Source: Cyanophora paradoxa CCMP329 (taxonomy: Eukaryota; Plantae; Glaucophyta). Taken from it: DNA of 64,000 nt. Where the stretch lies: assembly GCA_004431415.1 (NCBI GenBank), contig QPMI01000181.1, positions 1 to 64,000 on the forward strand, given 5' to 3'. How positions within the stretch are numbered: the first letter of the stretch is position 1; each line of letters opens with the position of its first letter. This document shows, piece by piece, positions 6,956-31,793 of this stretch. The position numbers and the translations under genes were made by a program. The notes beneath the pieces were generated by a model, which saw only the letters and a program-made list of their open reading frames with translations, did not search any database and was not told where the DNA came from.

Positions 6956-6969
6956 AAAGATATACAACA

Positions 6970-7751: not shown

Positions 7752-7778
7752 AATTATCTCTCATTCTAATAAGATACA

Positions 7779-8511: not shown

Positions 8512-8533
8512 TTTTCTCTGTTTTATTAGAGAC

Positions 8534-9035: not shown

Positions 9036-9187
9036 GATAATTGAGAAAAAGCGGTCTCAGTATGCCACTGAGGCAGCTATAAAAGTTTACAGACAGGAAC
9101 TGGTGTTCGCAACAAAAAATGACTTAAGGAAAAAGTAGATAGATTGTATTGAGGAAAAATTATTTTCGTATCTACTATTAAAGAGAA

Positions 9188-9514
9188 ATGCCGAATATCC
9201 GCAAGATACTCACAGATGATGAAAAAGCAGAGAAGCTGAGACTGAAAAGGGAGCAAGATGCCCAAAGAAAACGCGAAGCCTATCATAAAAAGAAGCAGGA
9301 ACGATTATCCCAAGGAGCCGCTACAGTTCACACACCAGAAGAACTCAAAAAGATTGCCCTCAGACACCAGAGGAAATACAGGGAAAATGAAGAATATCGC
9401 GAGCAAAAAAAGGCAAAAGCGCTGGAATATTACCACAAGAAGAAAGATGAACAGCCCAAGAAACCCAAAGAGCATAAACCGGTTGGAAGACCTCGGAAAT
9501 ATATCGAAGAATAA
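9188..9514 (+). CDS. Small basic protein with AT-hook-like motif, paralogue of 8790-9035
   Basis: KPVGRPRKY motif in a K/R/E-rich helical sequence. Confidence 0.65.
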   Translation: MPNIRKILTDDEKAEKLRLKREQDAQRKREAYHKKKQERLSQGAATVHTPEELKKIALRHQRKYRENEEYREQKKAKALEYYHKKKDEQPKKPKEHKPVGRPRKYIEE

Positions 9515-9732
9515 ATTCTCGATCGAAACAAATTTTGTAGAAATCGATTTGATCGGAGGCAAAAAAAATGACAGCTTTCTTCCCTCTTTTTTAAAACTGT
9601 ACCTATATATCGAGACAGTATCCCGACCCAAAACTACTTAAGGACTTGGCAAATAATAGGATATATATAAAAGACAATTCCTCCTTCCGAAATTATTTTC
9701 TTCGTTAAAGGTAGAAGTCCCCAAAATCGAAA

Positions 9733-12327
9733 ATGAACAAAATCGAGAAATTCGCCACCCCTGTTGAAAATGCTACATTCCTTAGTACTCTCATTGGTGA
9801 TCGCAACAAGGTCACCCATGTATTTGATTCTGCCGAAGATGCCCTTGAAGCCATTGATAATAGCAAGGTTAAGACCTGGGCTGAATGCATTCAACCTGAG
9901 CAAGTGACCAGAGTTTACCTGGACCTGGATAAATTCGCTGATTTGAAGGAGAACATTGCTGATAACTATGCTGAGGCGGAAACTGTTGTAAGAGAGATGA
10001 GAGATAAGCTATGGAAGCGATCTGGTACCACTTCTATTAACGATATTGCTGTTGCAGTTCGCCATAGAAGGGTTTATTTGATTAAGGAGGATGTCACCAA
10101 GTTCAAGATTTCAGCCCACTTTATTATTAAATCGCTTGCATGCAAACATGAAGATATCCCCAAGCTTTTCAAAGCGATGGGATTGGTGAAAAATGAGGAT
10201 TATGACAGTGGAGTTTACAGCTCCACACAGAACCTAATCTGCCTCAATTGCTGCAAAGGTGAGACTCTGGATGCTCAAAATAAGTCGAAAAAAGATGTTG
10301 ATAAAAACGTTTGCTTTAAGAAATTCGTTGACTGTGACAAAGTGTTAATGCGAAATGAGGACTTCTTTGTATCTTACTTCTCAGCTACTACTAAACTTGT
10401 GGATGAATCAAATATTTCTGCATTTGCAAATTATACTCCTGAGCCAAAACCAGTTAAAAAGGAGCCAAAAAGTGATAAAGTGAAGACTGAGAAGGTAGAA
10501 GCTGAAAAAGACACTGAACCCGAAAATCCTGTTACTTTCGAACTGCTACAAAGTGTTATAATGGGTCTCAATGCTGAAAGAGCCAGCGAGTATAAGACTT
10601 GGATTGATGTTGGACTGGTCATCATCAATGTTGGGGAAGACAACAAATTTACCCCTAAAATGCAGGCTGAACTCTTCCACCAATTCTCAGAACAGAGTGA
10701 CAAGTATGATTATGATGAATGCCAGGAAAAGTTTACACAGCTTCGCAGAAGCAAGAAGAAGGCTGAGCCTGGCAAAGTGTTGACCTTCAAATCCTTGGTT
10801 TATTGGTTGAGCAAAGATAACAATGAGCTTTTCAAGGAACTCTTCCCCAAAAAGTATGCATTCCTACCAGAGGACACAGATGAAATCGATTACAAGACTG
10901 CAAGTATCCCTCCTTTGGCTGAACATTACAATGTGCATAAGAGGTATTTCAATGCTCGCATGCATCATGTTGAAAATGTTGGTTGTGTGATGCTCTGGGA
11001 TGAACAACTACTTTGCTGGATGCCCAAAGACATTGGAAAACTGTCTACAAAGCATTTCCCCCACTTGATGCATAAGGTGATTGTGAATGAGGGGACAGAT
11101 AATGAGAAAGAGAAATGGGAGCAATCATTTAGGAAATGGATTGTGGATCCAACAGCCACAAGATCAACTTACATGGATTTCCTCCCACCTCCTGCTACTC
11201 TCAGTGCAAAATGCAAGTCTGTATTTAATCTCTATCCAGGAATGAAGGTCGACCATCAGCAATTCGAAAATGCTCCAGAGGATGTAACTGCTGAGATGAT
11301 TAAGCCTTTCCTTGATCACTTGTTCTTAATGTCTGGTGAGGATCAAAATACCTATGAATATCTGTTGAAATGGTTTGCCCACATGCTGCAAAAGCCTGGG
11401 GAACTCAATGGAGTATCCTTAATCTTCATTGGTGAACAGGGAACTGGTAAGAATGTGTTGGTTGATACTTTCCAAAAGAAGATACTTGGAGATGCCCTGA
11501 GTTATGCAACTGGTAAGCCAAAAGAGGATCTGTTTGGTCGATTTGCCCACAATAGAGAGGATAAGATCTTGATTGTTGTGAATGAAGCCTCAGGCAAGGA
11601 CACATTCGAAAATAATGATATGCTTAAAGATCTCATTACTTCTGATAAGATTGTTATTGAACACAAAGGGATAGATTCATACACAAAAAGCAACTTTGCC
11701 AGGATTATATTCACCAGCAATAACAACATTCCAGTTAAAATTGAAGCTGGAGATAGGCGATTTGTGGTTGTTGAAGTTAGTAAGAAATTCGCAAAGGATA
11801 GGTCATACTTCCTTCCACTTGTAAAATGGCTTAATGATCACTGCAATATTCGAAACATTGCCCACTATTTGAGAACCAAAGTTGAATGTGAGGATGTGAA
11901 CTGGATTGCTGATAGACCCCTTACAAATAAATACTATTTAGCCCAGCAGGTGTGCGCTCCAATCATCCTTATGTTCACTAAGTGGCTTGTGGATCGAGGC
12001 TTAATTTCCGAGAATAAATGCAAGTCTGGTAGCCTTGTGGAAACCTGGAAATGGTTCCAGGAGTTCATTACCAGCAATAAATATAAAAACGATTATAATA
12101 GTCGCAGATATTATACAGAAATGCGAAGTGTTACATATATCCAAGTGAAAACTACAAATGGTAAACAATACTATCATTTCCTATTCCCACAAGTATTTGA
12201 GGAATTCAGAAAGATGAAGCTTGTAGATGATGAGACCATTGAGGAAGAAGCTAATCCAAGGATGAAACAAGAACTACCTGCTGCTGATCCTGATGCATCA
12301 GATTATGACTCTGATGTTGAAGTTTAG
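9733..12327 (+). CDS. Primase-helicase: AEP-type primase, PriCT-2-like domain, D5-like SF3 helicase
   Basis: RVYLDLD and SAHFII (AEP motifs); YKTWIDVGL...FSEQSDKYD (PriCT-2); Walker A GEQGTGKN, VVNE, IFTSN and DRRF. Intact 864-aa ORF. Confidence 0.9.
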   Translation: MNKIEKFATPVENATFLSTLIGDRNKVTHVFDSAEDALEAIDNSKVKTWAECIQPEQVTRVYLDLDKFADLKENIADNYAEAETVVREMRDKLWKRSGTTSINDIAVAVRHRRVYLIKEDVTKFKISAHFIIKSLACKHEDIPKLFKAMGLVKNEDYDSGVYSSTQNLICLNCCKGETLDAQNKSKKDVDKNVCFKKFVDCDKVLMRNEDFFVSYFSATTKLVDESNISAFANYTPEPKPVKKEPKSDKVKTEKVEAEKDTEPENPVTFELLQSVIMGLNAERASEYKTWIDVGLVIINVGEDNKFTPKMQAELFHQFSEQSDKYDYDECQEKFTQLRRSKKKAEPGKVLTFKSLVYWLSKDNNELFKELFPKKYAFLPEDTDEIDYKTASIPPLAEHYNVHKRYFNARMHHVENVGCVMLWDEQLLCWMPKDIGKLSTKHFPHLMHKVIVNEGTDNEKEKWEQSFRKWIVDPTATRSTYMDFLPPPATLSAKCKSVFNLYPGMKVDHQQFENAPEDVTAEMIKPFLDHLFLMSGEDQNTYEYLLKWFAHMLQKPGELNGVSLIFIGEQGTGKNVLVDTFQKKILGDALSYATGKPKEDLFGRFAHNREDKILIVVNEASGKDTFENNDMLKDLITSDKIVIEHKGIDSYTKSNFARIIFTSNNNIPVKIEAGDRRFVVVEVSKKFAKDRSYFLPLVKWLNDHCNIRNIAHYLRTKVECEDVNWIADRPLTNKYYLAQQVCAPIILMFTKWLVDRGLISENKCKSGSLVETWKWFQEFITSNKYKNDYNSRRYYTEMRSVTYIQVKTTNGKQYYHFLFPQVFEEFRKMKLVDDETIEEEANPRMKQELPAADPDASDYDSDVEV

Positions 12328-12518
12328 GTTTACTCAAAAGTGGACTCACAGTTGACTCAAATTTATCATAAAAGACCCAAACAGTCTTTTATTTATGGTT
12401 TATTTATCGATTAGGTTGACTAAGTGGGGGAGTTGACTCATTTTTTCACAGATTCTAAAAGAGGACTCTGCCCTAAAAAGAAATAAAAAGTGCCTCAACT
12501 CCACCCACTAAGTCAACC
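12328..12518. repeat. Iteron-like direct and inverted repeats (GTTGACTCA/GTTGACTAA), candidate origin, copy 1
   Basis: GTTTACTCA, GTGGACTCA and GTTGACTCA at 11-12 bp spacing right after the helicase stop. Imperfect inverted repeat 12414-12437 vs 12494-12518 around an AT-rich spacer. Confidence 0.7.
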
Positions 12519-12569
12519 AAAAAATGATTTAAGAGATAGAAAAATATATTTATATGTAACTAGTAAGAA

Positions 12570-12920
12570 ATGGCTGGAACAGATCATGATTCTGGATCGA
12601 TCTATATGATTGAGAGTCAGGAAATGAACAAAGTCTACATAGGAAGAACCTCACAGCCACTTCAAAAAAGATGGAGACAACACAAATCAGGTCAAATGCC
12701 ATCTACAGCAGACCTATGCAAGGCTTCTGATGTGAAGTTCTCAGTCCTGTATTCAAGTAAGAAGGGTGGGCATGAAGACCTAATGAACAGAGAAGCATAT
12801 TACATGTATCTCTTTGAACCTTGGATAGTCAATTTACAAAAACCGAAATCCCGATTTAGGATTAATAGGTTTTTGCGATTCCATTCAGAGGAAGCCAGTG
12901 GATCCATTAAAACATTTTAA
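12570..12920 (+). CDS. GIY-YIG endonuclease
   Basis: GSIYMI...VYIGRT...RWRQH...REAYY...N pattern. Confidence 0.8.
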   Translation: MAGTDHDSGSIYMIESQEMNKVYIGRTSQPLQKRWRQHKSGQMPSTADLCKASDVKFSVLYSSKKGGHEDLMNREAYYMYLFEPWIVNLQKPKSRFRINRFLRFHSEEASGSIKTF

Positions 12921-12980
12921 ATTGCGTTTAGAACATCCTAAAATAAAATATCCCCTTAGAATAGGAACAAGTTAGGAATA

Positions 12981-15900
12981 ATGCCCCGAATTACCAACAA
13001 ACTCATAAGGGAGAAGAAATGGGAACTCATGGGATTGCTGGGAACACTTTATGCAGCCCATGAAATTACAGAGGCTGAATATGACCGGGAAATAGATTTA
13101 ATTGCAAAGGGTAGACCCACTTTAGCCAGATTAACCAGAAAAGCAAATAACCTATATGATAAAATTGAAACCTTGGATGAACTGGATCGCCTAAGGCAAA
13201 TAGAACCTGAGGCAGAAGATGGAACAGCCATGAATGAATTATATCGCTGGCTCACTTACAGAGCCAGAAGGGAAGTTGTTGTAGATGTGATTGAATTCCT
13301 GGACAGAATTGCTACATCCCTTCCAAATCGATTAAAGCAGGGTTTAGATCAATTCAGGGCAATCAAGGTTCGCTTGTCTTTTATCTGCAAGTTCGTAAAA
13401 GTGAGCAATCCACAGGTTTGGATATCGAAATACATTTACAGTGATTACTTTGTATTAACCAGGTCGAGAAATATTCGAACTGAGCTGAATAAAGCAGCCC
13501 AAATGTGTCAGGAGCAGATGAATGTGGTTGATAGCTATCGCTTAGAAAGAATTGAAATACTCAGAGTGGCTATTATGAGTTATGCTCCAACTGGTGGATG
13601 CTTTCTACAAACCCCAGAGTGGATTGCTAGGAAGAGAGCCACAGTGAATATTCGAAATATTGATGATTCCTGCTTCGAAAATGCGATTTTAGCCTCGATT
13701 TACAGAAAATCTATTAACTCCCATAAGAGGAATGAGCTTTCCCAATATCGCAAATGGAAATACTCACCAATCGCTTACAATCCTCTTGCTCTGAATTTCG
13801 ATAACATCCCATTCCCTGTTGCCTGTGATGCTGAGATTATTGATAAATTCGAGGCTCAAAATGCAGGCATTAGCATTAATATATTCGGAATCGATGGAGA
13901 GGTTGTTTATCCCCTGCATCAATCCAGTAACCCAGGCAGAAAGCATAAGGTTAATCTCATGCTGATATTTGATGATGAAGGGAATGGTCATTATATTACA
14001 ATCATGTCCCTTTCAAGATTATTGAAAGTAAACCATGAAACATACAATGATCAGAAGTTACACTACTGTGACACATGCTTATCTCGATTCAGGTCTGAGG
14101 CTAAACTCACTGCTCATGTGGACTCAAATAGATGCATTGACTGGAGACTCTCAAAGGGAATCACCCCTAAACCTGAGACCACCATAGAGTTTGGACTGAA
14201 AAACCTCAGGAAAACTGTTTGGCTTCCTGTTGTGGTCTACTGCAAGATTGAACATAGAAGCATCCCCATTGATGCATCGAAATCCAAGAGGGAAGTTTCA
14301 GCAGTCAACCTTAGAGTAGTCACTGGGGAAGATGTTCAAGATTTTCGATTTGAGGGGCAGGATCCAATGGGAGGTCTCTTTGAATGCTTGGAGTCCAAAG
14401 CTAGAGAACTAATCGATTTCCTGTTCACCAATATTCCAATGAATGAACTCACAGATGAGCAAAAGGCTATTTACAGGGCTACTAAAAACTGTTACCTTTG
14501 CAGTGAGAGGTTCACTAAAGAAAATTTCAAATGCAGAGATCATGACCACCACACAGGTCATTACATTGCTCCTGCATGCAGAAACTGCAATCTCCATAGG
14601 AGAATCTCAAAGCAAACCAAAGTTGCAGTTGTTGTTGACCAAATGGATGACTGTGGGACATTCATTTTCAGAAAAATAGCAGGTTTGGGTGATAAAAAGC
14701 GAATCGAAATCCTTTCGAAAAACTTTGATCAATACCTTTCATTGCAATGGGGTCTTTACAAGTTCATTGATGCAAGCAATTTCATGGATTTCGGAGCTGC
14801 TGATGTGACTGAGTTAATGAACAAATTCCAAGCCTTCAGAAGGCTTTCACACTCAGTATATGGACTTGACCCAGTTCATTATGTATCTGCACCTGGGCTA
14901 TCTTGGGATGCTATGCTTAGGACCACCAAGGCAAAAATAGAACTCATCAGTGATGTAGAGCAATACGAATTTGTTGAGAGGGGAATCAGGGGTGGCTTTG
15001 CAACAATGCCCTGTAGGTATGCTGAGGCAGATGGTGAGAACTCCCATATAATGCTGTTTGATGCTAACAACTTGTATGGCTACTGTTTGAGTCAGCCAAT
15101 CCCAGTTGGTGATTTTAGATGGGAGACCGAATTCAACCCACAAGATAACAGATCCAGTTTCCTAGAAGTTGATCTGGATTACCCAATTAGGCTGTTTCTA
15201 GATCACAGTGATTTCCCCCTAATTATTAACAAGAAAATAGTAGAATATGCCGAATTATCACAATATCAAAAGAGCCTATTAGATCTTTCAGGAGAAGAGC
15301 TTGATAAGACCCCTAAGCTAACTGCAACCTTTGGTTCTGTGACAAACTATGTGATTTCTGAGCCTCTCCTACAGTATCTGTTGGACAAAGGGGTGAAATT
15401 AAAGAAGGTTCACAGGGTCCTATCATTTACTGTGGCTCCTGTCATGAAACCCTATATTGAGCTGAACACTGAGATGAGAAGGAAAGCAGTGAATAAATTC
15501 GAGGCTGATTTCTATAAGCTCATGAATAACTCAATCTATGGGAAATGCATTGAATCTTGCAGAGGTAGATCTGTGGTTAAGATTGCAAACAGTGAGAAAC
15601 TGTTTATGAAATATGCAGCCTCTCCATTGGTGAAATCAACAAGCCCCATAAACGAAAGAGCAGTTGCCTTTGAGTTTTACACAAAACATGTGAAGCTAGA
15701 TAAGCCTGTTGCTATTGGGGCTTATGTTTTGGATGCAGCCAAACTGCATAATTACCAGTTCTTCTATGATACTGTGAGGTCCCAATGGTCAAAAGCAAAG
15801 TTGCTATTCCATGATACTGATTCCTTCTGTCTATATATTGAATCTCACACCCTCCAAAAGGACCTGGGGAATATCTCTTATGCATTGGACCTTGGAGGTG

Positions 15901-16226
15901 ATTCAAGAATGACCCCAGGTAAATACAAAAATGAAATGCCAGGTTCTGCTATATTAGAATATGTGGGTCTGAGAGCCAAAGTTTACAGTTTCAGAACTGC
16001 TGAGATTGAGAGAAGTAAGCTCTCTGGGACTTCCACTGAGGAACTCCAATTTAATGATTTTAAGCAGTGTTTATTTGCAGGTATCAGCAAGACTGTGACT
16101 GCAAAGCAGAAAAGAAGGGCAGATCACACAATAGTAGACACTGTGAGTAGAAGGGTTGCCCTGAACTGCTTTGATGCAAAGAGATACATCTTACCAGATG
16201 GTATTAATTCTGTTCCTTTTAATTAA
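12981..16226 (+). CDS. polB: Maverick/Polinton-type family B DNA polymerase with Zn finger and endonuclease VII-like insert; exonuclease motifs degenerate
   Basis: DANNLYG, KLMNNSIYGK and FHDTDS polymerase motifs; CYLC...RDHDHHTG...ACRNCN Endo VII-like domain; CDTC...H zinc finger. Intact 1081-aa ORF. Confidence 0.92.
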   Translation: MPRITNKLIREKKWELMGLLGTLYAAHEITEAEYDREIDLIAKGRPTLARLTRKANNLYDKIETLDELDRLRQIEPEAEDGTAMNELYRWLTYRARREVVVDVIEFLDRIATSLPNRLKQGLDQFRAIKVRLSFICKFVKVSNPQVWISKYIYSDYFVLTRSRNIRTELNKAAQMCQEQMNVVDSYRLERIEILRVAIMSYAPTGGCFLQTPEWIARKRATVNIRNIDDSCFENAILASIYRKSINSHKRNELSQYRKWKYSPIAYNPLALNFDNIPFPVACDAEIIDKFEAQNAGISINIFGIDGEVVYPLHQSSNPGRKHKVNLMLIFDDEGNGHYITIMSLSRLLKVNHETYNDQKLHYCDTCLSRFRSEAKLTAHVDSNRCIDWRLSKGITPKPETTIEFGLKNLRKTVWLPVVVYCKIEHRSIPIDASKSKREVSAVNLRVVTGEDVQDFRFEGQDPMGGLFECLESKARELIDFLFTNIPMNELTDEQKAIYRATKNCYLCSERFTKENFKCRDHDHHTGHYIAPACRNCNLHRRISKQTKVAVVVDQMDDCGTFIFRKIAGLGDKKRIEILSKNFDQYLSLQWGLYKFIDASNFMDFGAADVTELMNKFQAFRRLSHSVYGLDPVHYVSAPGLSWDAMLRTTKAKIELISDVEQYEFVERGIRGGFATMPCRYAEADGENSHIMLFDANNLYGYCLSQPIPVGDFRWETEFNPQDNRSSFLEVDLDYPIRLFLDHSDFPLIINKKIVEYAELSQYQKSLLDLSGEELDKTPKLTATFGSVTNYVISEPLLQYLLDKGVKLKKVHRVLSFTVAPVMKPYIELNTEMRRKAVNKFEADFYKLMNNSIYGKCIESCRGRSVVKIANSEKLFMKYAASPLVKSTSPINERAVAFEFYTKHVKLDKPVAIGAYVLDAAKLHNYQFFYDTVRSQWSKAKLLFHDTDSFCLYIESHTLQKDLGNISYALDLGGDSRMTPGKYKNEMPGSAILEYVGLRAKVYSFRTAEIERSKLSGTSTEELQFNDFKQCLFAGISKTVTAKQKRRADHTIVDTVSRRVALNCFDAKRYILPDGINSVPFN

Positions 16227-16229
16227 GAG

Positions 16230-17615
16230 ATGCCAGCAACTGGAAGAATAGTTAGGAGAACCACTGAGCAACTGCAAGGTAACCTACTGCCTATCACAAT
16301 TCCAAAGGAGGAAAAGGGGGAATCTCGAATTGTTAAAAAGTCTGAAATGAAAGAGCTTGTCCCAGTAGAGATCCCAGTTGCCATTGCAGTGAAAGAAACT
16401 AGCAAGATTGCCAAGAGATTCTATGATGTGAGAACTGGTTACAAAGGGCTTCAAGCTATGAGGGCTGAGTTACCTGATGAATCCTATAAGCAGTTGCAAG
16501 AGTTCTATAAAAAACAAGAAGTTGTTCAGATCAATGCACCTGCTATATCTAGGAAGAGAGATCCCATGGTCCCAATTAGGCAACCCCTTGATACCTATGT
16601 GATTGATTTGCTCTTTTTCCCAGCTTATAAGAAACAAAACAATGGCTATGATACATTTATGACTGCAATGGAATCAACACTGAGAACTGGGTATATTATA
16701 CCTATAAGAGATAAATCAGCTCTCACTACATTGGCTGCATTTAAACAGCTTGAGATGAGAGTGGCAAGACCAATAGTAAAGGTTCAATCAGATGCTGGAA
16801 GTGAGTTCCAAAATCGAATATTCCAGGAGTATTTATCTAGTAAATTCATAGAACACCAAGTGAGTGGAACTGCTGACCACAGAAGCCAAGGTCGAATTGA
16901 AGCCTTTAACAAGCAGATTAAGAGACTGATCACAAACTACTGCATAGCTAATAACACAGCTAGATTCTTTGATGTGTTAGGTGATATTGAGTATAATTAC
17001 AATAATACAGTTCACTCAGCTACTAAGATGAAGCCAGGCGAAACTACAGAGGAGCATTATAGGTATATAGTGGGATTAGAAGATGAAAGATTCAAGAAAT
17101 CAATAGCTTACCTTGATACCATGCAGCCTGGCATGTTTGTTAGAGTGAAAGTTGAGAAGAACCCCTTTGCTAAACAGGGTAACAATTGGTCTAGGATGGT
17201 TTACACTGTTGATAGTAGGGAAGGCTTTAAATTTAAGCTAAGGAGTCCCACTGGAGAGATCATAGATAACAGGTTTGCTTTCCATGAGCTGTTGCCTGTG
17301 AATGCAGTTGAGTATCTAGAAACACCTACAGTGGATGCCTTGGAGCAAGCTAAAGAGGAAGCTAGGGTTGATGCTGCTATAAGGAGAGAGGGCATAGAAG
17401 CTGCTAATGAAGTCCCAGATAAGCCTTTGATAGAGGCTAGAAAGGAGAAGGCTGGGAAAGTTAACAGGGAACTCAAAAAGCTCACCATAGCAGGGACACA
17501 GAAACTTTCAGAAGTGAATAGCCAGAGATGGTATAATGACTTTCAGACTACTAAGGAGTCATATACAGCTCCTAAACCTCAAAGAACACTAAGAGAAAGG
17601 ACCAAAACTAGCTAG
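16230..17615 (+). CDS. Retroviral-type (rve) DDE integrase
   Basis: YVIDL, QSDAGSEF and GRIEAFNK (D-D-E); YNNTVHSAT; Polinton-like C-terminal VRV...WS...Y.V...ELL. Confidence 0.93.
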   Translation: MPATGRIVRRTTEQLQGNLLPITIPKEEKGESRIVKKSEMKELVPVEIPVAIAVKETSKIAKRFYDVRTGYKGLQAMRAELPDESYKQLQEFYKKQEVVQINAPAISRKRDPMVPIRQPLDTYVIDLLFFPAYKKQNNGYDTFMTAMESTLRTGYIIPIRDKSALTTLAAFKQLEMRVARPIVKVQSDAGSEFQNRIFQEYLSSKFIEHQVSGTADHRSQGRIEAFNKQIKRLITNYCIANNTARFFDVLGDIEYNYNNTVHSATKMKPGETTEEHYRYIVGLEDERFKKSIAYLDTMQPGMFVRVKVEKNPFAKQGNNWSRMVYTVDSREGFKFKLRSPTGEIIDNRFAFHELLPVNAVEYLETPTVDALEQAKEEARVDAAIRREGIEAANEVPDKPLIEARKEKAGKVNRELKKLTIAGTQKLSEVNSQRWYNDFQTTKESYTAPKPQRTLRERTKTS

Positions 17616-17841
17616 TTTGCTAGGCAAAAACTCGTTTTTTCCAAATATATGTATGACTGATATACATATATGCATATGATATACACATAGTCTTGTAGAT
17701 CTTATCAAGCGCTTCACAGCGATATGCAGAACGTTGCGTTTTGATGATCTGGTGATGAGATATAACAGTTTGAAGATGCAAAAGTCACTTGCCATAGTAG
17801 ACTTGGTGAAAGACTAGCCCAGGAGTCGACTCGACGGTAAG

Positions 17842-17913
17842 CCGTTTTTGGCTCAGAGAATAGAGCGCTTGATTTCTGACTCCAACCTACGCGGTTCAAA
17901 TCCGCTCGGGAAC
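17842..17913 (+). ncRNA. Degenerate tRNA-like unit with RNA polymerase III A and B boxes
   Basis: TGGCTCAG with a GCTC/GAGC D-stem and GCGG-TTCAAAT-CCGC T-arm at canonical tRNA spacing. Acceptor and anticodon stems do not pair in register. T6 run at 17961. Confidence 0.45.
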
Positions 17914-18547
17914 CTTTACTTCGTTCGCCGTGAAACTTGAAAAGTAAAAACAAAACGCGGTTTTTTCTAGATTAATGCTGTACCCGTCTAGAAAATCAAT
18001 ATTCACGTTTGCTACGATATCTCAACACCAACTTATCAAATCGATGCGCTTAAAACGTCATAAAATCGAGCATTTCAAGGCGGTCACAGCGCTTATGAGC
18101 CATATCGGAATTTCACTAACTGTAACTCCAAATCGCGATGAAACCGATTTTGAATTTTGATTTTAAATTCGATTAAAATCCATTAAACGTGAGTTTTTAA
18201 TATAGATCACTAGGAAGTTATCAAATCGATGCACTGACGGTCGAATATAATCCCATATATCATACATAACAATAACTTGCAATCACATATACGAATCGCA
18301 ATGTGTATAGATCGCTATTACGATTAAAGCGAGTTTTGAAATTCAAAATTAATTCGATTAAATTCGATTATAACTCAAAAATCGCGATTTATAACCATAT
18401 ACTTATCGTTTCGATCAACTTATGATATCGAATATTCAACTATATTATATTGCTTCGATAACCGTGATTACATATGTGGAACCATCAATCTAACACTGCA
18501 TTTAGTAAGCATCTGCCCTAGATTCCCCCCATTACCCTATTATTTAA

Positions 18548-18982
18548 GTGGACTCAAGGTTGACTCATATTAATCGTAAAAGTAGTAAAAGTATATGGAT
18601 TTTGTTACGAATTCAATGCAAGGGTTGACTAAGTGGGTTGAGTTGACTCAAATTTCACAGGAAATATTTGGGACCTAAAGTTTTCTAAAAAGGATTTGAA
18701 AAAATGTGTCAACTCCCCCCACTTAGTCAACCCTGACCATAAACAGTAAGGATTTGAGCTAACATGTATCACAAAGTGAACATTTTGAGTCCACTTAGAA
18801 GATCCACTTTTGAAATCCAAGTTGATTTTGCTTGAAATTTCAAAGTTGATCTAAAAGTGAGTCCACCCTGATTGATTATGGTAACAAAGTTGACTAAGTT
18901 GACTAAGTTGAGTCATCTTAAGAAATTCAAAGAGACTAAGAGTTCAAAATGTTTATGAAAAGTGAGTCAACTTAGACCACTT
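18548..18982. repeat. Iteron-like GTTGACT repeats of element A, copy 2 (subterminal)
   Basis: Same arrangement as 12328-12518. Inverted repeat GGTTGACTAAGTGGGTTGAGTTGAC (18623-18647) vs GTCAACTCCCCCCACTTAGTCAACC (18708-18732), with more copies to 18982. Confidence 0.75.
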
Positions 18983-19029
18983 CTGATAACAAAGTTAAAT
19001 ATTTAATTGATTTAATCGGAAAAGAACAT

Positions 19030-19259
19030 GATTTAATCGAATTTATTGATATAATTCCGATTAGATTCATTTAGGATTCAATTAAGATCAATCGAAGTTA
19101 TTGATATAATTCCGATTAACTACAATTAAGATACAATATCGATTAATCGAGTTTATCGATATAACATCGATTAAATTAATTGAAAATGCATATAAAAATA
19201 CGAAAATTCATGTGAAAATTCAAATAAATTAATCGATTTTATTGATATAACATCGAATC
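19030..19259. repeat. AT-rich subterminal repeats GATATAA-N3-CGATT
   Basis: Four copies (gatataattccgatt x2, gatataacatcgatt, gatataacatcgaat). Confidence 0.6.
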
Positions 19260-19332
19260 ACACATATGAATATTCATATTTTAATCCTGAGGCGGAACGC
19301 CGAGGGATTAAAATATGAATATTCATATGTGT
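19260..19332. repeat. Terminal hairpin of element A (28-bp perfect stem, 17-nt GC-rich loop)
   Basis: ACACATATGAATATTCATATTTTAATCC (19260-19287) is the exact reverse complement of 19305-19332. Confidence 0.92.
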
Positions 19333-20082
19333 TTCTTTAAACTCATGAACAATGCAATTTACGGTAAATGCTTGGAATCTTGCAGGGGTCGCTCAACTGT
19401 CAAGATCGCTAACAGTGAGAAACTCTGTAAGAAATACGCAGCAAGTCCGCTTATCAAAGCGACCAATGTATTAAACGAGAATGCCGTTGCCTTTGAGATG
19501 TATTCGAAGCATGTGAACTTAGATAAACCCGTAGCAATTGGCGCTTTCGTTTTGGATTTTGCGAAACTACATAACTATCGGTTCTTCTATGATGTAGTAA
19601 GGAAGAAGTGGGAAACCGCTAAATTACTGTTCCACGATACCGATTCGTTCTGTCTTTTCCTGAAAACCAATAATCTGAACGAAGATATGAAAGAGATAGG
19701 TGAGTATCTCGATAGGAGCAATTACGATAAATCCCATCCTCTCGTGAGTATCAAAAACCGCATGGTTCCAGGTAAATATAAAAATGAGTTCCCAAATGCA
19801 AAGATCATGGAGTATGTGGGTCTGAGATCGAAACTCTATGCTTTCAGAACTGAGACCAACGAAAGAGTAAAGATGTCGGGGACTTCCTCGAAAGAGGTTC
19901 ATTTTGATGATTTTAAGAGATGTCTGTTCGAAGGCATCATAAAAACAGTATCAGTAACAAACAAGCGAAGGCAAGACCACAACTTATATGACTTGGAGAG
20001 CAGAAGGGTCGCTCTAAACCAACTCGATAGCAAACGGAAGATATCAGCCGACGGCATTCACAGCATTCCATTTGGTCTTTAA
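19333..20082 (+). pseudogene. polB: 3' fragment of element B polB, interrupted by element A
   Basis: FFKLMNNAIYGK...FHDTDS...YVGLRSKLY, collinear with the C-terminus of ORF 12981. Homology starts at the hairpin end. Confidence 0.9.
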
Positions 20083-20267: not shown

Positions 20268-21566
20268 ATGCCCTCAGCACAGATAGGATTGCGACCCATT
20301 CCTAAAATCGTAAAGAAGAGCATGAAAGAAGACCAAGGGAACATGCTACCGATAACCATTCCGGTCGAAGAGAAGAACACACGAATCTTAAAGAAGTCGG
20401 AGATGGTTAAACAACTGATCCCGGAGGCATTGCCTACTGAGACTGTAACGAAAGAATCGAAGATCGCGAAGAAGTTTTACGATCCGCGCACAGGTTACAA
20501 AGGTTTCGGGGCAATGAGAAAGGAACTACCAGAGGAAGACTACAAGAAGATGAGAGAATGGTATGATAAACAGGAAGTCGTTCAGATAAACGCACCGACC
20601 CTTTCAAGAAAGAGAGATCCGATGATTCCGATTCGGCAACCTCTCGATACCTACGTAATCGATCTGCTCTTCTTCCCAGCATACAAGAACCAAAACGACG
20701 GATACGATACGTTCATGTCCGCGATGGAATCTACCTTACGCACGGGTTACATCATTCCGATGAGAGATAAGAGCGCTCTTACGGCGCTTGCGGCGTTTGA
20801 ACAGCTACAACGAAGAGTTCCTCGACCTATCGCACGCGTTCAGAGTGACAGCGGAAGCGAGTTCACAAATAACATGTTCACGAATTACCTTGCTAAGAAG
20901 TTCATAGACCATCAGATAAGCGATGTCGCAGATCATCGAAGCCAAGGTAGAATCGAAGCGTTTAACAAGCAGATCAAACGATTGATCACGAACTATTGCA
21001 TAGCAAACAACACAGCGCGATTCTTCGATGTATTGGGAGACATTGAGTATAACTATAATAATACCATCCACTCAGCAACCAAGAGAAAACCAGCAGAAAC
21101 GACGGAAGATCATTACCGTGAGATTATCGGATTAGAAGATGAGAGGTTCAAGAAGTCGATTGCTTACTTGGATGGTATCAAACAGGGTATGTTTGTGAGA
21201 GTGAGAATAGAAAAGAACCCATTCGCTAAACAAGGTGTCAATTGGTCACGAATCGTCTATACTGTCGAAGGGCGCGAAGGTTTCAAGTTTCGGTTGCGAA
21301 ACCCGAACGGCGAAATGGTCGAAGGGAGGTTTGCTTTTCATGAACTGTTACCTATCAAAGGTGTTGAGTATCACGAAGCGCCCACAGTGGATGCACTCGA
21401 ACAAGCGAAAGAAGAAGCCCGGGTCGATTCGGCGATTCGCAAGGAAGGCATCGGAAAAGCGGATGATGTTCCAGAAGAACCGCTATTACAAGCCAGATTA
21501 AAGAAAAAAAATAAAATTACAAGAGAATTAAAGAAACTTGCAATAAATGGAACTGAAAAACTCTAA
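20268..21566 (+). CDS. rve DDE integrase of element B
   Basis: YVIDL, QSDSGSEF and GRIEAFNK; long stretches identical to ORF 16230. Confidence 0.93.
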   Translation: MPSAQIGLRPIPKIVKKSMKEDQGNMLPITIPVEEKNTRILKKSEMVKQLIPEALPTETVTKESKIAKKFYDPRTGYKGFGAMRKELPEEDYKKMREWYDKQEVVQINAPTLSRKRDPMIPIRQPLDTYVIDLLFFPAYKNQNDGYDTFMSAMESTLRTGYIIPMRDKSALTALAAFEQLQRRVPRPIARVQSDSGSEFTNNMFTNYLAKKFIDHQISDVADHRSQGRIEAFNKQIKRLITNYCIANNTARFFDVLGDIEYNYNNTIHSATKRKPAETTEDHYREIIGLEDERFKKSIAYLDGIKQGMFVRVRIEKNPFAKQGVNWSRIVYTVEGREGFKFRLRNPNGEMVEGRFAFHELLPIKGVEYHEAPTVDALEQAKEEARVDSAIRKEGIGKADDVPEEPLLQARLKKKNKITRELKKLAINGTEKL

Positions 21567-23101
21567 TTTCTGATAAATGCGCCCGTTACATCGACTCTCA
21601 TAGTCGGAGCATTTATATATACCAATGGATAAATACGTATATATCGTGTTCTCAATGGATAACCTATGTAAAATACATCGTTTACCGAAAGTGGGAACCC
21701 CATAGCATATGATACATCCCCAGAGTTATAAGCATTATTTATATTCTCACATACAAACATTCTATTCACACCCTCATACTTGATAAATGACCATGAAACC
21801 CCATCTTGCGAGGTCGCAACATTGAAAGTTTTAATAAACGCAGCCGTTATACCTGAACCATATGCAATTATAGAAGCGATTTCATATGTATATGGGAATG
21901 CTATTTGCAGATACTCTGTTGGCGTTTCCCATACTCCGTTTATTGCGGATGCATTCGCTTCCCATCCAGTTAATGATGGGCGGGCTTTAAATGCCTCCTT
22001 TCCGAATTTCGCAGATGAAGCGGTAAACGCATTATCCGGCAGAAGATACCAATTAGCATCGATGGGGGGTATGTTATTCAGAGTGGATGATATATAGAAC
22101 CTTACAGGGTTCTTAATCTCGTAGTTTGTTACGAGCAAGTCGCAGAGTCTATTAATCATGGTGTCGTTTTCTTCAATATACGTTTCAGTTGCCGCGATCA
22201 TGTCCGGAATCTTAGAGGTATCATCGAGAGAGTTTAAGATATCTTTTGGAAGCGGAACAGAGAGCCTGTAATATCTTGCATATCCTTGGTCATCATTATA
22301 TGGTAAAAACTCTTGCATCTTTTCAAGAGCCGACAGTTCACTTGCAGCCATTAGCATATTGATTAATGGACTTCCTGAGGTGGAAGCAATCCACGAGAGA
22401 ATACCCCAGGTATTCACGTTCTCATAAGGATAACCGACGTTTGATGCGTCCGTTTCATTTACTTCACCGCACGAGATGCTAATAACTATAATATCGTCAT
22501 CGTTATCATATATCTTTTTCGCGTGACTGTAACCACAAACGCTTGGGTTATTGTTACCTGATATTGCGCCATCAATTAGACACATCCCGTCGTAATCGAC
22601 AGGAGCAAAATATGTCGGAGCAGCCGAGGTGGATCGCGCCGCAATCTTACTTGGTATGGTCTTGTAATCGTTATCGTTTGCTATAAAAATGGGTTTCATA
22701 CTCACTGTGTCGAATGTCGTAATAACCACGTCTTTTAGTGAATCTTTTATGAGAGCTTCCCCAGTCACAGAGAGAATGGCTGTCTCTAATGGTGTTACGT
22801 CGTATTTCGTATTAAAAAGGGCATTCTCTATGATGTTTCGCGGATTCGCAAAGATCAAAGGGAGATGGTAAAGGTAAGTATCGTGAAGGTCGGTCGCAGT
22901 TAGTTTAGGTTCATTGGGAAATTCGGGATTTTTCACATTGAGACCGATAGCAATAATACCGCCTGTGGATGTTCCACTTACGAGATCTACAAGATCGATC
23001 ACGCGTTTACCGGTTCTTGTTTCGATCTCTTTTAGCAATCTTGTTATGATGATACCACGAGCGCCACCTCCGGACAAAGATAATACGACTTTTAGGGGCA
23101 T
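21563..23101 (-). CDS. Patatin-like phospholipase fused to discoidin (F5/8 type C) domain
   Basis: GGGARG oxyanion motif, GTSTG nucleophile, SAAPTYF and DGA; C-terminal AFTASS...EYLQI...SQDGVSW...TRYIRIYP...MRVD. Confidence 0.9.
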   Translation of the reverse strand: MPLKVVLSLSGGGARGIIITRLLKEIETRTGKRVIDLVDLVSGTSTGGIIAIGLNVKNPEFPNEPKLTATDLHDTYLYHLPLIFANPRNIIENALFNTKYDVTPLETAILSVTGEALIKDSLKDVVITTFDTVSMKPIFIANDNDYKTIPSKIAARSTSAAPTYFAPVDYDGMCLIDGAISGNNNPSVCGYSHAKKIYDNDDDIIVISISCGEVNETDASNVGYPYENVNTWGILSWIASTSGSPLINMLMAASELSALEKMQEFLPYNDDQGYARYYRLSVPLPKDILNSLDDTSKIPDMIAATETYIEENDTMINRLCDLLVTNYEIKNPVRFYISSTLNNIPPIDANWYLLPDNAFTASSAKFGKEAFKARPSLTGWEANASAINGVWETPTEYLQIAFPYTYEIASIIAYGSGITAAFIKTFNVATSQDGVSWSFIKYEGVNRMFVCENINNAYNSGDVSYAMGFPLSVNDVFYIGYPLRTRYIRIYPLVYINAPTMRVDVTGAFIRN

Positions 23102-23149: not shown

Positions 23150-26100
23150 ATGAGTTTCAATTATCCAGCAAATTTACAGACAGTATCAGGTGGTGGTAAA
23201 GGGAACCCAAAACATGTGAACTTTGATAATATCACCATTAAAGGGTCGGCTTCTATTGATCAGAGCGCGGATAAACCCTCGAAAACTCATCCCCGGGTTC
23301 ATGCTTTATCGGTGAACCAAACGGATCCTGATAAAGAAGATGTTAGCATTGCTTTCAGTTTGGGCAATGTTAAAAAAAACGCTGTTGCAGAGATCAAGGC
23401 AACCAGAAGGAGACCACGGAAACTTAAAACCAGTGGAACGCATCCCGATATTCCCACACGATTCGATAGCGGACGTTTGGTTTTCAACGTCCAGGATGAG
23501 AAGGGAGTTCATCGTAGCGGTTTGAGAATTTATAATGAAGGATCAAATACGATTGCACAAATTCCCCAGATTTTACAGGTAGCCCCACATGGCGAAGAGA
23601 ATCAGATTCGCCACACCAACAGTATTTATCCGAAGGACATCGTCGAAAATGCAGAAACTAATGCACTGTTTGGTTTCACTCTTCCACAGGATACTTCCAA
23701 AGAAAAAGATTCAATCACGGTCGACAGTAGCCCCAGTCAACCAGTAGCCATTCATTTACACCCCGACCTTGTCGAAATGGATAGGCATTTACTACCTTTG
23801 AAAACAAATACCAAAGACCTTGGTATTAGAACCCGACAGTGGCGAAATATTCACGGTAGCAACGTGTATGCAAACGGTGAGAAACTTGTAAGCGAGAAAA
23901 CTATCAGAGAAATATTCGAACATTACGGACCTGTTCCGGTTCCGTTTCCTCTACCATGGGATCCGCCAGATCTTACACCAAAGAAGCAACCAGGAAGAGA
24001 GTATACAGCAGAAGAGAACGTTGCATTTGGGCAACATATCGTGAGTTGGGAAAAAGTTCGAAACAAACCAGTATTTACAGTGTATCAACCACCAACAGAA
24101 GAGCTTCTTGCACCAGATGTGAACGTTATACCTCTTGAAGATCGACGATTCGAAGAAGATAATGAGTTACCTGATGGTTTCGATCCAAACCTTATAACAT
24201 ACGATCGCTACGAACCATATGATGAACAGCTTTTACCTGATGGATTCGCACCCGATCTATTTGATTTCATTGTTGATTGGGAGGACATCCGAAATAAACC
24301 CCAAACATATCCACCTGATCCCCATGCTCACGATTGGGACGAAATAGAGAACAAACCTGATAGATTCCCACCTGTGGATCATAGACACGATTGGGAGGAT
24401 ATCGATGGAATACCAGAAGAATTTCCACCAGAAGACCATAGACACACTTGGGATCAAATCGATGCACCAGAAGAGTTTCCACCAGCACCACATAGACACA
24501 ATTGGAACCAAATCGACCAGCAACCTACATTCGCATCAGCAGGTGATGCTGTCAATGATGGGCTACATGGTGTGAGTCTCTATAAGAATATAGACACAGA
24601 GGAAAGATTAATGTTAGATACGTATTACGTCAATCGTCACGGAATAAATGCAGGCACCACAATGGAAGGCGAATTATATATCAGACCACCTACACGAGTT
24701 AATTTAGTTGCAGCAGGTGGAGGTATTGGAGTAATGCAGAATAAACCGGGCATCTATCTAACAAGTTACTACCCAGATGACATCCCGATGACAGTTACAT
24801 TACCACCTATCCCATCTCTTCCAGCCGATCCAATTAATTTTGTAGACAAAGATGCAGCAATCCAAATTAACGTTACTGATGTAAGCGCTCTTGATGGATC
24901 AAGACCAAAGTTAATATTTAGTCGAGATCGGCTCTTACCTGATGATTTAATTGGAGATCGAGACGATTATAAGCAATGTGAGATAGGGTGGATTAAAACC
25001 AATTATAATGATGTTGATAAGCAAGGGGTCTTGGAAATCAATCAGAGAGCAGCAGCAAAAAACATACACAACGAAACAATATCACGAGTGGTCACAGAGG
25101 ATTATTTAGAAAACAAGAATTACATAGATGGAACCGAATTAGCTACGGCTTTGCTTCCTTTGGCGGCAGTTTCAACTGTCCAATCTTGGTTAGGTAACTA
25201 CCTTCCCTCACAGGTGGAACCATAACAGGTAATCTGACAGTCAATGATACATTGAGTGTAGGTAAAGAGATACACCTAAGTGGAAATCAGTTCGAGAGAG
25301 GATCCCAAGATTTCTCTACATATAATCCAAGGGAAATAGCAGATTGCCTACTTCACTTTAACGCAAACTCTGATAATTGGAAGAGTGGAGCGCTTGTTTA
25401 TGAACTCAAAAATTACGCAAGGGGCGGCTCAGTTTGGAATTATATTAATGTAGTTAACACTCTTGTTAGTTACGGCAGTGTTACTTTCAGCTTCCTCGGT
25501 CCAAATAGTAAAAAGTTCTACCAGGTGGCTACCACAAACACATTTTCATTCATCAATTATCAATATCAAACTTCTACTCTTTATGATACTATTCCTTTCA
25601 GCGGAATTACGGTCTCATTTGTCATTCGATTTAAACCAAGCGTTCCAAATGAAACAGTTTTACGAATCGACGGCTCAACACATGTGAATGGAAACAATCT
25701 CAGTTGGTTGATTACTAAAACAAGCGGGTATTTGAATGTCAATAAGAATGGCTACGATTTAGTGAGCATTCCAATATCAACAACAGAAGGGAATTCTTGG
25801 ACAATGTTCGATATTCGAGTAACAAGCACAACTGTTCATTTTGGTGTAAATGGAAAACATAGAGATACAATATCTGTTCCTGCCGATTCAAGATATCCAC
25901 GCCAAGATGTCAATAAAATACATGTGGGTGATAGCGTTTCAAAATTCGATTTATGCGAACTCCTTTGTTATGGTAGAACCCTTTCAGATACAGAACTACA
26001 AAATATTAGATGGTATTTACAGCAAAAATACGGTTTTCCGGAAGACCCTTTAAATCCATATCCATTGGATAACAACAAGATTCTTGTTAGAACTAATGAG

Positions 26101-29100
26101 TTTAAAGTAACCGGCACCCTCTTGGCGACGAACGTTATTATGACTACATCAACCTCAGGCACAGTATCGACTATGAGCCTTCAAGAAAAAACAAATAGCT
26201 TGGAAGAGAGTATTTATACACAACAAGAGGCAATTACAGCACTCCAAACTGAGGATGCCGCACTTGCAACAAGAATAAATAACATAGAGAGTGATTATAC
26301 TTCTTCTAATGTGGTTCAAGAATGGACAGCACCTTTAACGGCATCGAATGTAGTTCAAGAGTGGATAGCACCATTGACTGCATCGAATGTAGTTCAGGAA
26401 TGGATTGGACCTTTAACAGCATCGAATGTGGTTCAAGAGTGGATTGCGCCATTAACTGCATCGAATGTGGTTCAAGAGTGGATAGCACCTTTAACAGCAT
26501 CAAATGTGGTTCAGGAATGGATATCAGATTACTTACCTCTCACAGGAGGGACACTGTCAAGTAATCTTACCATCTCGGGTAATCTCAAAGTGTCAAGCAA
26601 CATTCAATTAGGAACTCATGGGACGGTTTTAGATGTGACTTATGACACACCCTATTATCCTATCACATCCAACACTGACCCTGCATTTACAATTCCGAAT
26701 TGTCTTATAGCTGCAAAACCATCTGGCTATGCCCATCTACAAAATGGGCATGGAACAACGATCACCAACCGAGCAACATTGGCTGTTCCATTCATTCCAC
26801 AATTTTTTATGACTGGTTCCTCACGGGAATCATACTATAAAATAAATCCATTACTAAATAACCAACTTACTTTGAAAGCATCTGACAACCCCAATTCATC
26901 CATTCATTTGTTTTCAAACAGAAATGATACTGTGGATTGGAGTGAGGGAATAACAATATTTAGTGTGTGTAGTGTGAGGTCACTTACATTGGTCCATGCA
27001 GTGTTTGGCGTGTTTAATTATAATGTGCATGAAGTAAGGTATGGCACACACATAGATTGGTTTGTGAACCCACCTGTTTGCAAATGGGGCATGAATAGAT
27101 ATGTCCATGTTGCTGATGGGGTTAACATGCAATATGGAACACCAACATATAGTAATCTCCCAACTGTCTATATGCCTTATGAGGAATATGCAAATTACAA
27201 ATTTGCATACTGGGACACAACCATTACTTCAAACAGCATATCATATTCAATGAATGGGAAGCATTTAGGAACTGTTGCTGGTAACTGGCTTCCACCATCA
27301 TCATTTAATAATTTAGGACCTGCAAATATTGGGGAGAGTTTGCAGAACTACTTGTTTTCAATAGAGCCTTGACCGAGATTGAGAAGCAACAGGTGAGGTA
27401 TTATATTCAGCAGATGTATGGATTTCCTATAACTCAACCTCTTTACTATCCTGATAATATGCGAATATCAGCAAATTATCTCTATCTAAACAACTTACAC
27501 ATTGGTTCAAATGCTATCATTCCAAACTATACCACATCAAATGTGGTTCAAGGTTGGATACAGAACCACACACCTGCGTGGTCAAATATCACAGATAAAC
27601 CATTAACTTTTGCTCATGATGCTCATTCTCACACAAAGTCAGAGATAACAGATTTCGCCCATTCTCACACAAAGTCAGAGATTACAGATTTTGCACACAC
27701 CCATTTATGGGCAGATCTCACAGACAAACCGCTCACGTTTACTCCTTCTGCGCACACTCACACAAAATCACAAATAACAGATTTTGCCCATTCTCATACG
27801 AAGTCAGAGATTACAGATTTTGCACACACCCATTTATGGGCAGATCTCACAGACAAACCGCTCACGTTTACTCCTTCTGCGCACACTCACACAAAGTCTC
27901 AAATTACAGATTTCGCCCATTCTCATACAAAGTCAGAGATAACAGACTTTGCCCACACTCATTTATGGAATGACATCACAGACAAACCATCAACGTTTGC
28001 CCCTTCTGCGCACACTCATGATTACTTGCCTCTCACAGGAGGAACAATTTCCTCAAATCTTACGATTTCATCCAACTTGAATGTTATAGGAAAAATTCAA
28101 ATTGGAGACAAAAATACAAACATTGATGTATACTATGACGCACCCTATTATCCTGTTACTTCTAATACAGACCCCGCTTTTGCCATACCAGATTGCCTCT
28201 TAACAATAAGATTAGATGTTGTCCCTGTCGGCATAAACATCAGTCACGCCTTTATTGCAAATAGAGCAACTACGGCAATTCCCTTTATTTCCGGGTAACC
28301 TTCCCATGGTCAGGATACAACACAATAACTCAATTGAGATCTGATTACAATAACCGAAACATTGCCCAACAACCTACTTATTCATATACAAGCCGGGAAT
28401 TTGGAATGCCGTATCCCGTAACTGTGGATTGGTCAAAAGGTATCACCATCTTCTTTGCAGGTTCTTATAGATTTTGGGGACCGTGGGTAGATCTCTTAAA
28501 TTTTAGTTCACCAGATGGAACTAATAAAGTATCCTTTGGGACAACAGGTAGCAGTATGGGTATACATTCTTATACAAGCAATGGTGTGACTTACCCAGCA
28601 GCACACTTAAATTATCCCACATCGTATTCTGAGTTGTCGCCGAATCATTGGGACTTTACAGTTTCTTCAAATGTCTGCACTTTCGGATTTAACGGACAAG
28701 ATTTAGGCACAGTCATTACAGAAGTGGATTATCTTCCACCTTCCACTTTTAGTAGGATGGGTGTTGCCTATTTCATTACGGCAGTAGGGGAATATATTAT
28801 ATTCAACAGAGCATTGACATTTGATGAAAGGCAAAAAGTGAGATATTATATGCAAGATTATTTTGGCTTTCCAAAAAAGCAAACAATCGTTATTCCTGAT
28901 AATCTACGCATTTCTGCTGAAAATGTTCATATTAGAAATTTAATCGTTTCTTCAAATGCAAGCATTCCAAACTATACCACATCAAATGTGGTTCAAGGTT
29001 GGATACAGAACCACACACCTGCGTGGTCAAATATCACAGACAAACCGTTAACGTTTGCTCCTGATGTTCATACTCACACAAAAGACCAAATATCAGACTT

Positions 29101-30879
29101 TTCCCATTCTCATTTATGGAATGACATCACAGACAAACCGTTAACCTTTGCTCCTGCTGCCCATTCTCATTTATGGAACGACATCACCGATAAACCATTA
29201 ACCTTTGCTCCTGATGCTCATTCTCATGCATGGACAACCATTACAGGTAAACCATTAACCTTTGCTCCTGATGCTCACACTCACACAAAGTCTCAAATAA
29301 CAGACTTCGCCCACAATCATTTATGGGCGGACATCACAGACAAACCGTTAGCGTTCACTCCTACTACTCACACTCACACAAAGTCTCAAATTACTGATTT
29401 TGCCCACACTCATTTATGGGCGGACATCACAGACAAACCGTTAACATTTGCTCCTGCTGCTCACTCTCATTTATGGGCGGACATCACAGACAAACCATTA
29501 ACATTTGCACCTGCTGCTCATACTCATGATTGGATAGGTATTACAAATAAACCTTTGCTGTTTCCGCCCGATGCTCATACACACCCTTGGAGTAGTATAA
29601 CAGAAAAACCATTAACATTTCCGGCAACAGCTCACACTCATTTATGGAATGATATTACAGACAAACCAACATTTGCAACTGTTGCGACAACCGGAAATTA
29701 TGATGATTTAATTAACAAGCCAACATACACAGCGCCCACAAATTTTGACGCTACAAGTATTATTTCCACAGATCGCACAGGTGATTGGAGAAATTACAAC
29801 GGAGGAATATTGACAGGGGACACAAATACTTGGGCGAACACATGGGCTGCTTCTGATGAAGATTGTAGTAGCTGTAAAATGTATTGGAATGTCCAACAGG
29901 AATGAAATCTTGTTATATCTATTATGCTTGTCATTACAATTGTAGATACTTTGATGTGGTGGGAATTTATCCTCCAACAACTGTGTATACATATTTACGA
30001 GTAAATGCCTATTCTACTGCAATCGACCCATCAAAGGAATTCAAACAGTATGTTGGAATAAATTGTGAAGGACTAACCAAAGTTGGTGTTCATGGACAGA
30101 AAGGAAGAATTTATTTACCCGGTCCAATTGCTGTTGGATGGAGCAAAAACCCTGCTGTAACTTCACACAGTGGTTACTGTCATTGGGATAATATCTTCGG
30201 AAAACCAACAGCTTCAACATCTGTCGGTCCTCACTCACACAGCAAAGCAGATATCACAGATTTTGCACATACTCACACAAAGGCAAATATTACAGATTTT
30301 GCCCATACTCACACTAAATCAGAAATCTCAGATTTGCCTTCTTTTGATCCATTCACAGCCAATACGATCACAGCAAATAATACTATGTATGTAGGATCGG
30401 GTTCAATAGTAACTCCTGCATCACCCACAAACCAAGAAACATGGTTCTTCCACAATTCCGCAAACTTTTATGATAAAACACTGCTCTGTCGTGGAAATGC
30501 TTATGCAAGAGCATTTTATGCGATGAATGCAGGAACCACAAACACAATCAGCCAAGTTCCATCTTGGTATGATATAGAAAGACGTTTCAAATCAGGAAAA
30601 TATCAAGCCACAAGTGGTGTTATAAGCGCGGGTCAAACAACACAGCATGCATATGTTTTATATTGGGACCCACCTTTTTACACTCAGACACCTGTTGTAA
30701 ATGCCACACTTCAAGGAACTCCTGCAACAAACCCAGGGGATGTAGATTTTAGAATTGGAATCTCAAACTCCACAGCTAACTACACAACAATCTATGTGAC
30801 ATTCATAGCATCCCCTACTCTATCTGAAAGTCGAAGTATCACATGCACTATCCATTGGACATGTCATGGTATACCATAA
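23150..30879 (+). CDS. Giant fibre/spike-like protein (about 2,570 aa if joined; split into ORFs 23150-25225, 25252-27372, 27369-28298, 28334-29905, 29884-30879)
   Basis: Tail-fibre-like HxHxWxDITDKP and HxHxKSxITDF repeats, YLPLTGGT motifs, and three LamG/ConA-like modules. Adjacent ORFs join by single frameshifts near 25206, 27335, 28293 and 29886. Confidence 0.7.
26300..26525 (+). repeat. 39-nt coding tandem repeat (APLTASNVVQEWI, about 6 copies)
   Basis: Visible in both DNA and translation. Confidence 0.85.
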
Positions 30880-31774: not shown

Positions 31775-31793
31775 TTATGTTTCGATATATTAA

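Follow-up and report, generated by a model that had tools for sequence, protein, structure and literature searches.

A putative Polinton-like virus probably inserted in the polymerase gene of a relative in the genome of Cyanophora paradoxa

Results

Gene content of elements A and B

The DNA analysed here, called the window, is a stretch of 64,000 nucleotides from Cyanophora paradoxa CCMP329 (contig QPMI01000181.1, positions 1 to 64,000). Its first part (1-35011), at about 40% GC, is made of two related elements. Element A (1..19332, 40% GC) looks like an endogenous Polinton-like virus, of which the window contains the 19.3 kb on the right, and element B occupies 19333-35011. Where they can be aligned, A and B are 66-83% identical at the DNA level.

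The genes of the right half of A are intact. A primase-helicase gene (9733..12327, plus strand, PriCT_2 and DUF5906) precedes a free-standing GIY-YIG endonuclease gene (12570..12920, plus strand, Pfam E value 9.9e-11), which sits immediately before A's own polB. The latter encodes a pPolB of 1081 aa (12981..16226, plus strand, DNA_pol_B_2, E 2.3e-13) with an endonuclease VII-like insert (Endonuclease_7, E 1.6e-4). Next comes the gene for an rve integrase (16230..17615, plus strand), whose rve match (E 2.6e-4) is under the cut-off and in which D-D-E candidates lie in motifs at aa 125, 187 and 221. An inverted repeat at 12338..12518 (minus strand) is a degenerate copy of the sub-terminal segment 18546-18732 (69%, 189 nt). 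These two repeats bracket the GIY-YIG/pPolB/integrase module and leave the primase-helicase and capsid genes outside.

On the left of A, the genes are frameshifted. At 1..1975 (minus strand), tblastn revealed a homologue of the B reading frame 23150-25225, and at 2019..3558 (plus strand) lies a patatin / F5-8 gene, homologous to B 21563-23101. A minor capsid candidate at 4500..5484 (plus strand) is a guess based on position, and its frameshifted frames gave no relevant Pfam match. The putative major capsid protein gene (5541..6955, plus strand), also frameshifted and also without Pfam match, maps along a relative of 456 aa, P0173, with 64% identity across the piece searched. In the ESM Atlas, this candidate capsid scored 0.96-0.98 to Capsid_N clusters, which we take as leads only, recognition being below the reliable level; the single-sequence fold of P0173 (pLDDT 34) was too low for a fold search. 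An A32-like packaging ATPase is encoded in two frames at 6970..7751 (plus strand). Its two pieces match Pox_A32 with E values of 0.051 and 2.9e-4, under the Pfam cut-off, and are consecutive on the profile (positions 3-114 and 120-183).

Reading frames of at least 200 aa cover 6% of A between 1 and 9700, versus 90% between 9701 and 17700. The breaks are limited to 1-9700, are mostly one-base losses, and hit the capsid, ATPase and patatin genes. Among 51 gaps in the A-B comparison, one-base gaps amounted to 24 on the A side versus 10 on the B side. Judging from the sequence, these frameshifts are likely consensus errors. We did not read them as signs of decay, nor take A to be dead on their account, as the excess of one-base gaps resembles consensus errors. 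Such breaks are described, in the sections covered of PMC10120064, as frequent assembly artefacts, with multi-copy elements being hard to assemble, so that A may well be intact.

In the window, element B opens with a polymerase gene piece, described below, followed by an intact rve integrase gene (20268..21566, plus strand), 74% identical to that of A and with an rve match under the cut-off. Then come a gene for a patatin phospholipase fused to an F5/8 domain (21563..23101, minus strand), large reading frames, among them some for fibre-like proteins with PTR-like tail-repeat units (23150..30879, plus strand, PTR under the cut-off), and a gene similar to S-adenosylmethionine decarboxylase (33118..33516, plus strand, AdoMet_dc, E 3.2e-12). 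The cryptophyte PLV survey does not contain the word decarboxylase in its main text. Reading frames of at least 200 aa cover 81% of B between 19300 and 33520. Relative to polB-integrase, the block formed by the patatin gene and the large reading frame is inverted between the two elements (A 1-3558 versus B 21563-25225), which indicates that these genomes do rearrange.

Between B and the 69%-GC host DNA lies a right flank of 1.1 kb (35012..36100) with 50% GC overall and 38% GC over its first 50 bases. An intronless, frameshifted reading frame runs through it, at about 35110-35794. The last piece of this frame (35345-35791) had no Pfam match, and no homologue among 117 candidates; the flank may be foreign, as a third insert, or else host DNA that is not translated. 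The minus-strand gene for a host DEAH helicase ends near 36155. The 69%-GC part after 36100, for which the Pfam search took in 150 of 153 frames, contains split genes for a DEAH-type helicase, an RsmB/F-type methyltransferase, a glutaredoxin and ankyrin repeats. These are traits of a eukaryote rich in introns, and the composition suggests a unicellular alga.

Both elements end in a hairpin and have gene contents like those of Polinton-like viruses

The right end of A is a terminal hairpin of 73 nt (19260..19332, arms 19260-19294 and 19298-19332), which places the end of the element at 19332. A hairpin of the same architecture terminates B (34927..35011), the element ending at 35011, before AACCCA. 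From the terminus inward, both consist of a 28-bp perfect stem and a bubble, then a short GC stem closed by a GAA loop. Seven of the first 28 positions differ between the two termini, each change being matched in the opposite arm. The tip of the B hairpin presumably is a very stable DNA mini-hairpin of the GCGAAGC type. Sub-terminal arrays are also present, with units of 59-72 nt and short inverted repeats in B (33552-34630), and units of about 55 nt in A (18853-19280). It is possible that these repeat arrays are binding sites for replication proteins.

By gene content, A and B have the look of endogenous Polinton-like viruses: rve integrases are found in both, and an A32-like ATPase, a pPolB and a primase-helicase in A. 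No cysteine capsid maturation protease was detected in the main reading frames nor in 42 of 81 unassigned or adjoining frames, A being frameshifted and the left parts of both elements falling outside the window. A virophage-type major capsid was not found either, in what is a weak test; the family-bearing Atlas matches listed were Capsid_N, Capsid_NCLDV and Pox_Rif. The closest pPolB to that of A, among the matches listed, was 49% identical, and the other 119 listed were at 32-39%. When a full-length B polymerase was sought at the protein level, 54 of 738 candidates matched, the best at 37-38% and none corresponding to B, which is weak evidence. A PDB sequence search with the A pPolB returned 0 matches. 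Locus searches recovered no relatives, whether with the A integrase (viral contigs), the B integrase (metagenome contigs) or the capsid alignment (viral contigs). The virus family, which combines hairpin ends, a pPolB and a primase-helicase and has no close named relative in these searches, seems to be undescribed.

The terminus of A abuts the polymerase motif B of element B

The last five letters of A, TGTGT (window 19328-19332), are followed from 19333 by TTC TTT AAA CTC ATG AAC AAT GCA ATT TAC GGT AAA. The polymerase piece of B starts there, the junction point 19332|19333 being also a codon boundary, and the A terminus and B polB have zero shared overlap. This piece (19333..20082, plus strand) is the 3′ 22% of a pPolB gene. 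It is an open frame which aligns with aa 844-1080 of the A pPolB (155 of 247 identical, 63%, E 3e-108), and it carries motifs B and C, with a DTDS motif; motif A (aa 694 in A) and the entire N-terminal 78% are missing. A tblastn search of the whole window with the A pPolB found only A's gene and the B piece. The initial annotation, which placed the TGTGT end against polymerase motif B and saw no polB upstream of it, was therefore correct on both points, the first being confirmed by the letters and the open frame 19333-20082, and the second, within the window, by tblastn.

A family B polymerase piece without motif A cannot be an active polymerase, so this copy of B cannot polymerise. The knock-out of the B polymerase that had been suggested thus holds for this copy, given the absence of motif A and of the N-terminal 78%. 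An in-frame ATG at 19315, within the A hairpin, opens a 255-aa reading frame of which the first 6 residues come from A; its chance of being in frame is one in three. We rejected the possibility that this ATG is a functional rescue of the B polymerase, because the product is devoid of motif A.

The junction lies in a conserved stretch, two codons before the motif B lysine. Over the 321 nt that follow the cut, 51% of third codon positions differ between A and B.

Public contigs support a true A end and an uncut B-like polymerase gene

Public contigs from 4 of 22 listed runs were compared with the window over 17700-20300, a stretch contained in 20 runs. One contig of run X17 had the same A terminal arm joined to at least 255 foreign letters. 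In the 30 letters displayed, 21 were G or C as counted by hand (70%). As the same arm is joined there to GC-rich foreign DNA, we conclude that 19332 is a true element end, and one that is found in host-like DNA as well.

In run X4, the match of two contigs begins exactly at 19333, and the letters upstream differ from those of A. Translated by hand in frame, these letters end in N-H-F-E-S-D, where A has N-K-F-E-A-D. Motif B was located in 164 of 171 homologues, and the 12 commonest hexamers preceding it (148) have the form x-x-F-E-K-(D/N/E). With polB sequence in frame upstream of the match, the X4 contigs indicate that uncut B-like polB genes exist. This upstream polB was listed for one of the four runs, among 24 of 72 loose ends listed. 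The source of the X4 contigs may be B itself or a sister subfamily that is at least 90% identical.

The last five upstream letters in X4 and the last five of A have nothing in common. The zero overlap at the join argues against homologous recombination and against an overlap misjoin, and fits integrase strand transfer. We consider it very improbable that the join is an assembly artefact, in which the end of A was linked to the interior of B through a chimeric read or the wrong resolution of a repeat. Reads and contigs naturally break at hairpin ends, which counts toward an artefact, as do the error-rich left 9.7 kb of A, a sign of a locally poor assembly, and the fact that none of 32 contig pieces listed, out of 1076, bridges 19332|19333. 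Multi-copy elements are moreover difficult to assemble, as stated in the parts of PMC10120064 covered. Against this, the A terminus is complete to its last base and shares no overlap with B, a random break would fall on the terminus with a chance near 7e-5, and the frames on both sides near the join are open.

Over the B part, 11 of 17 contig pieces listed had 0 letters differing from the window. Contigs showed many variant letters over both elements, which suggests that A and B belong to multi-copy families. Several window letters in the A terminal region were absent from all contigs compared in the four runs. At three loose ends (19627, 19766 and 19788), contigs share short polB stretches, then diverge in frame; this suggests that at least a third related virus, or polymerase, family is present in the same runs. 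Two contigs ending at 19287 had prompted the idea of flip/flop hairpin isomers. It was rejected as unsupported, since a 28-nt arm common to many flanks would produce that break in the word graph as well.

A different scenario, unlikely in our opinion, accepts the join as real but supposes a later rearrangement of the locus, by recombination between A-type copies or by an adjacent deletion that left B one-sided. The A-type terminal DNA is indeed common to many variant contigs, the patatin/fibre block is inverted between A and B, and the covered part of 10.64898/2026.10.13.758929 puts forward integration in tandem with subsequent deletion. No second break is found in the window, however, and B is continuous and undecayed from 19333 to its end.

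Discussion

Probable insertion of A into B

Our analysis makes it probable that A was inserted by its rve integrase into B, a relative about 70% identical, and thereby disabled the polymerase of that copy. Two elements expected from nesting by a DDE integrase were found, namely a complete terminus joined to the target with no overlap, and, in the two X4 contigs, an uninterrupted version of the target. The earlier proposal that A integrated into B stands as far as the joining of its terminus into B polB is concerned, and integration is the best reading of that join.

B would have been integrated first; the rve integrase of A would then have joined both ends of the linear A genome into B polB, choosing its target little or not at all. 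From gene order, and provided that A has the fibre block of B, A would extend some 10 kb past the window, making an insert of roughly 30 kb in B. Beyond the left end of A, one would then expect a short duplication and the left half of B, with its terminal repeat, its capsid genes and the 5′ 78% of polB, so that the whole composite would measure about 60 kb. The insertion is likely recent, as the B piece is undecayed and without stop and 11 of the 17 pieces listed are free of differences. Insertions into virus DNA are likely better tolerated than insertions into host genes. If so, and with multi-copy families, a single nesting needs no targeting mechanism. As an illustration, random integration of 20-80 elements of 30 kb in a genome of 60-120 Mb (all assumed values) would give at least one nested case with a chance of 5-99%.

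Could A have been steered into its relative? Either the integrase would prefer AT-rich viral DNA, or the GIY-YIG nuclease would cut the motif B of the relative. Homing sites typically lie in conserved polymerase motifs, next to which homing nucleases often act. The cut is two codons before the motif B lysine, an intact GIY-YIG gene precedes the A polB, the third-position difference of 51% would be enough to discriminate self from non-self, and the 50% GC of the B flank, compared to 69% in the host, leaves room for a mild AT bias. We nevertheless find steering highly doubtful. It is one event, noticed after the fact, for which chance suffices; the A-type end is also joined to 70%-GC DNA in X17; the flanks at 19333, at 35012 and in X17 share no motif; and a chromodomain was found in neither integrase (Pfam, E 0.01). 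EMALE virophages, which have an rve integrase, show no sequence-specific integration in the sections covered of PMC8547959. For these reasons, namely the GC-rich X17 flank, the three flanks without motif, the absence of a chromodomain match and the plausibility of chance, we do not retain the preference for AT-rich viral islands that had been suggested. Just as doubtful is the stronger version, a war on kin, whereby A would land in the motif B of a relative through its GIY-YIG nuclease or a biased integrase, and so disable a competitor at a site costless to the host.

The initial annotation also suggested that B could now depend on A in trans. Uncut B-like polB genes are present in X4, and with B-like polymerases elsewhere, dependence on A is not needed. 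On the reading that A was inserted by its integrase, the B copy with A inside would more likely be trapped than helped, and the composite is likely too large to package.

Comparison with known systems

The papers compared below were covered in part. Like Maverick-Polintons (PMC11161782, 10.64898/2026.06.19.733378), A has adjacent pPolB and rve integrase genes, a pPolB with a nuclease insert, putative capsid genes, an A32 ATPase gene and a phospholipase. A differs by its extra primase-helicase and its hairpin termini, and no cysteine maturation protease was detected in the part seen; most of the listed pPolB homologues of A are only 32-39% identical to it.

A close parallel is Halocafeteria seosinensis, in which 5 PLVs and 9 virophages are nested in viral elements, according to the sections covered of 10.64898/2026.07.28.741278. 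Nesting and rve integrases are shared with the locus described here, and some of the elements there also have a pPolB and a D5 primase-helicase. Terminal palindromes adjoin the TSD in these elements; they are mostly on elements without pPolB, whereas both hairpin-ended elements here carry one. Host GC is 47% there and 69% here, and no cut in the polB of a relative is described in the sections covered. Virus-in-virus nesting and terminal palindromes are therefore already known.

The genome of Cafeteria burkhardae is reportedly GC-rich, like the host here. Its EMALE virophages are AT-rich integrated viruses with an rve integrase and a pPolB, as are the present elements, and multi-copy assembly problems are common to both (PMC8547959, in the part covered). 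According to the same part, they integrate with a TSD of mostly 3-5 bp, and 91% of type 1 Ngaro retrotransposons are inside EMALEs, 1 of 20 Ngaro insertions being in pPolB. In that system a retrotransposon does the targeting, while the viruses themselves show no sequence-specific integration. The putative A capsid resembles Capsid_N/NCLDV-type clusters, with no virophage-type match, and a maturation protease was not detected in the frames searched.

Tandem polisuviruses (10.64898/2026.10.13.758929, in the part covered) resemble the present locus by their adjacent related genomes of 70-78% identity, their elements with two replicases, and extra repeats around one replication module, as with 12338-12518 and 18546-18732 in A. 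They are described as tandem, whereas the join here is inside a gene, at a terminus. In their covered parts, PMC12220804 reports PLVs that contain nested retrotransposons, as well as patatin-discoidin fusions, and raises the idea of trans complementation, PMC12747079 reports a retrotransposon within a PLV integrase, and 10.1101/2025.10.09.676808 has no passage on nesting or hairpins. Directed insertion into the polymerase of a relative was not met in the literature searched, which is not proof of its absence.

As it stands, the locus neatly illustrates the nesting of one virus in another, through which these viruses have been proposed to swap replication and capsid modules. The conserved hairpins, carried by pPolB-encoding elements, have a bearing on whether replication is primed by such hairpins. 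Repeated landing in the polymerase genes of relatives, if seen genome-wide, would mean directed competition between endogenous protist viruses.
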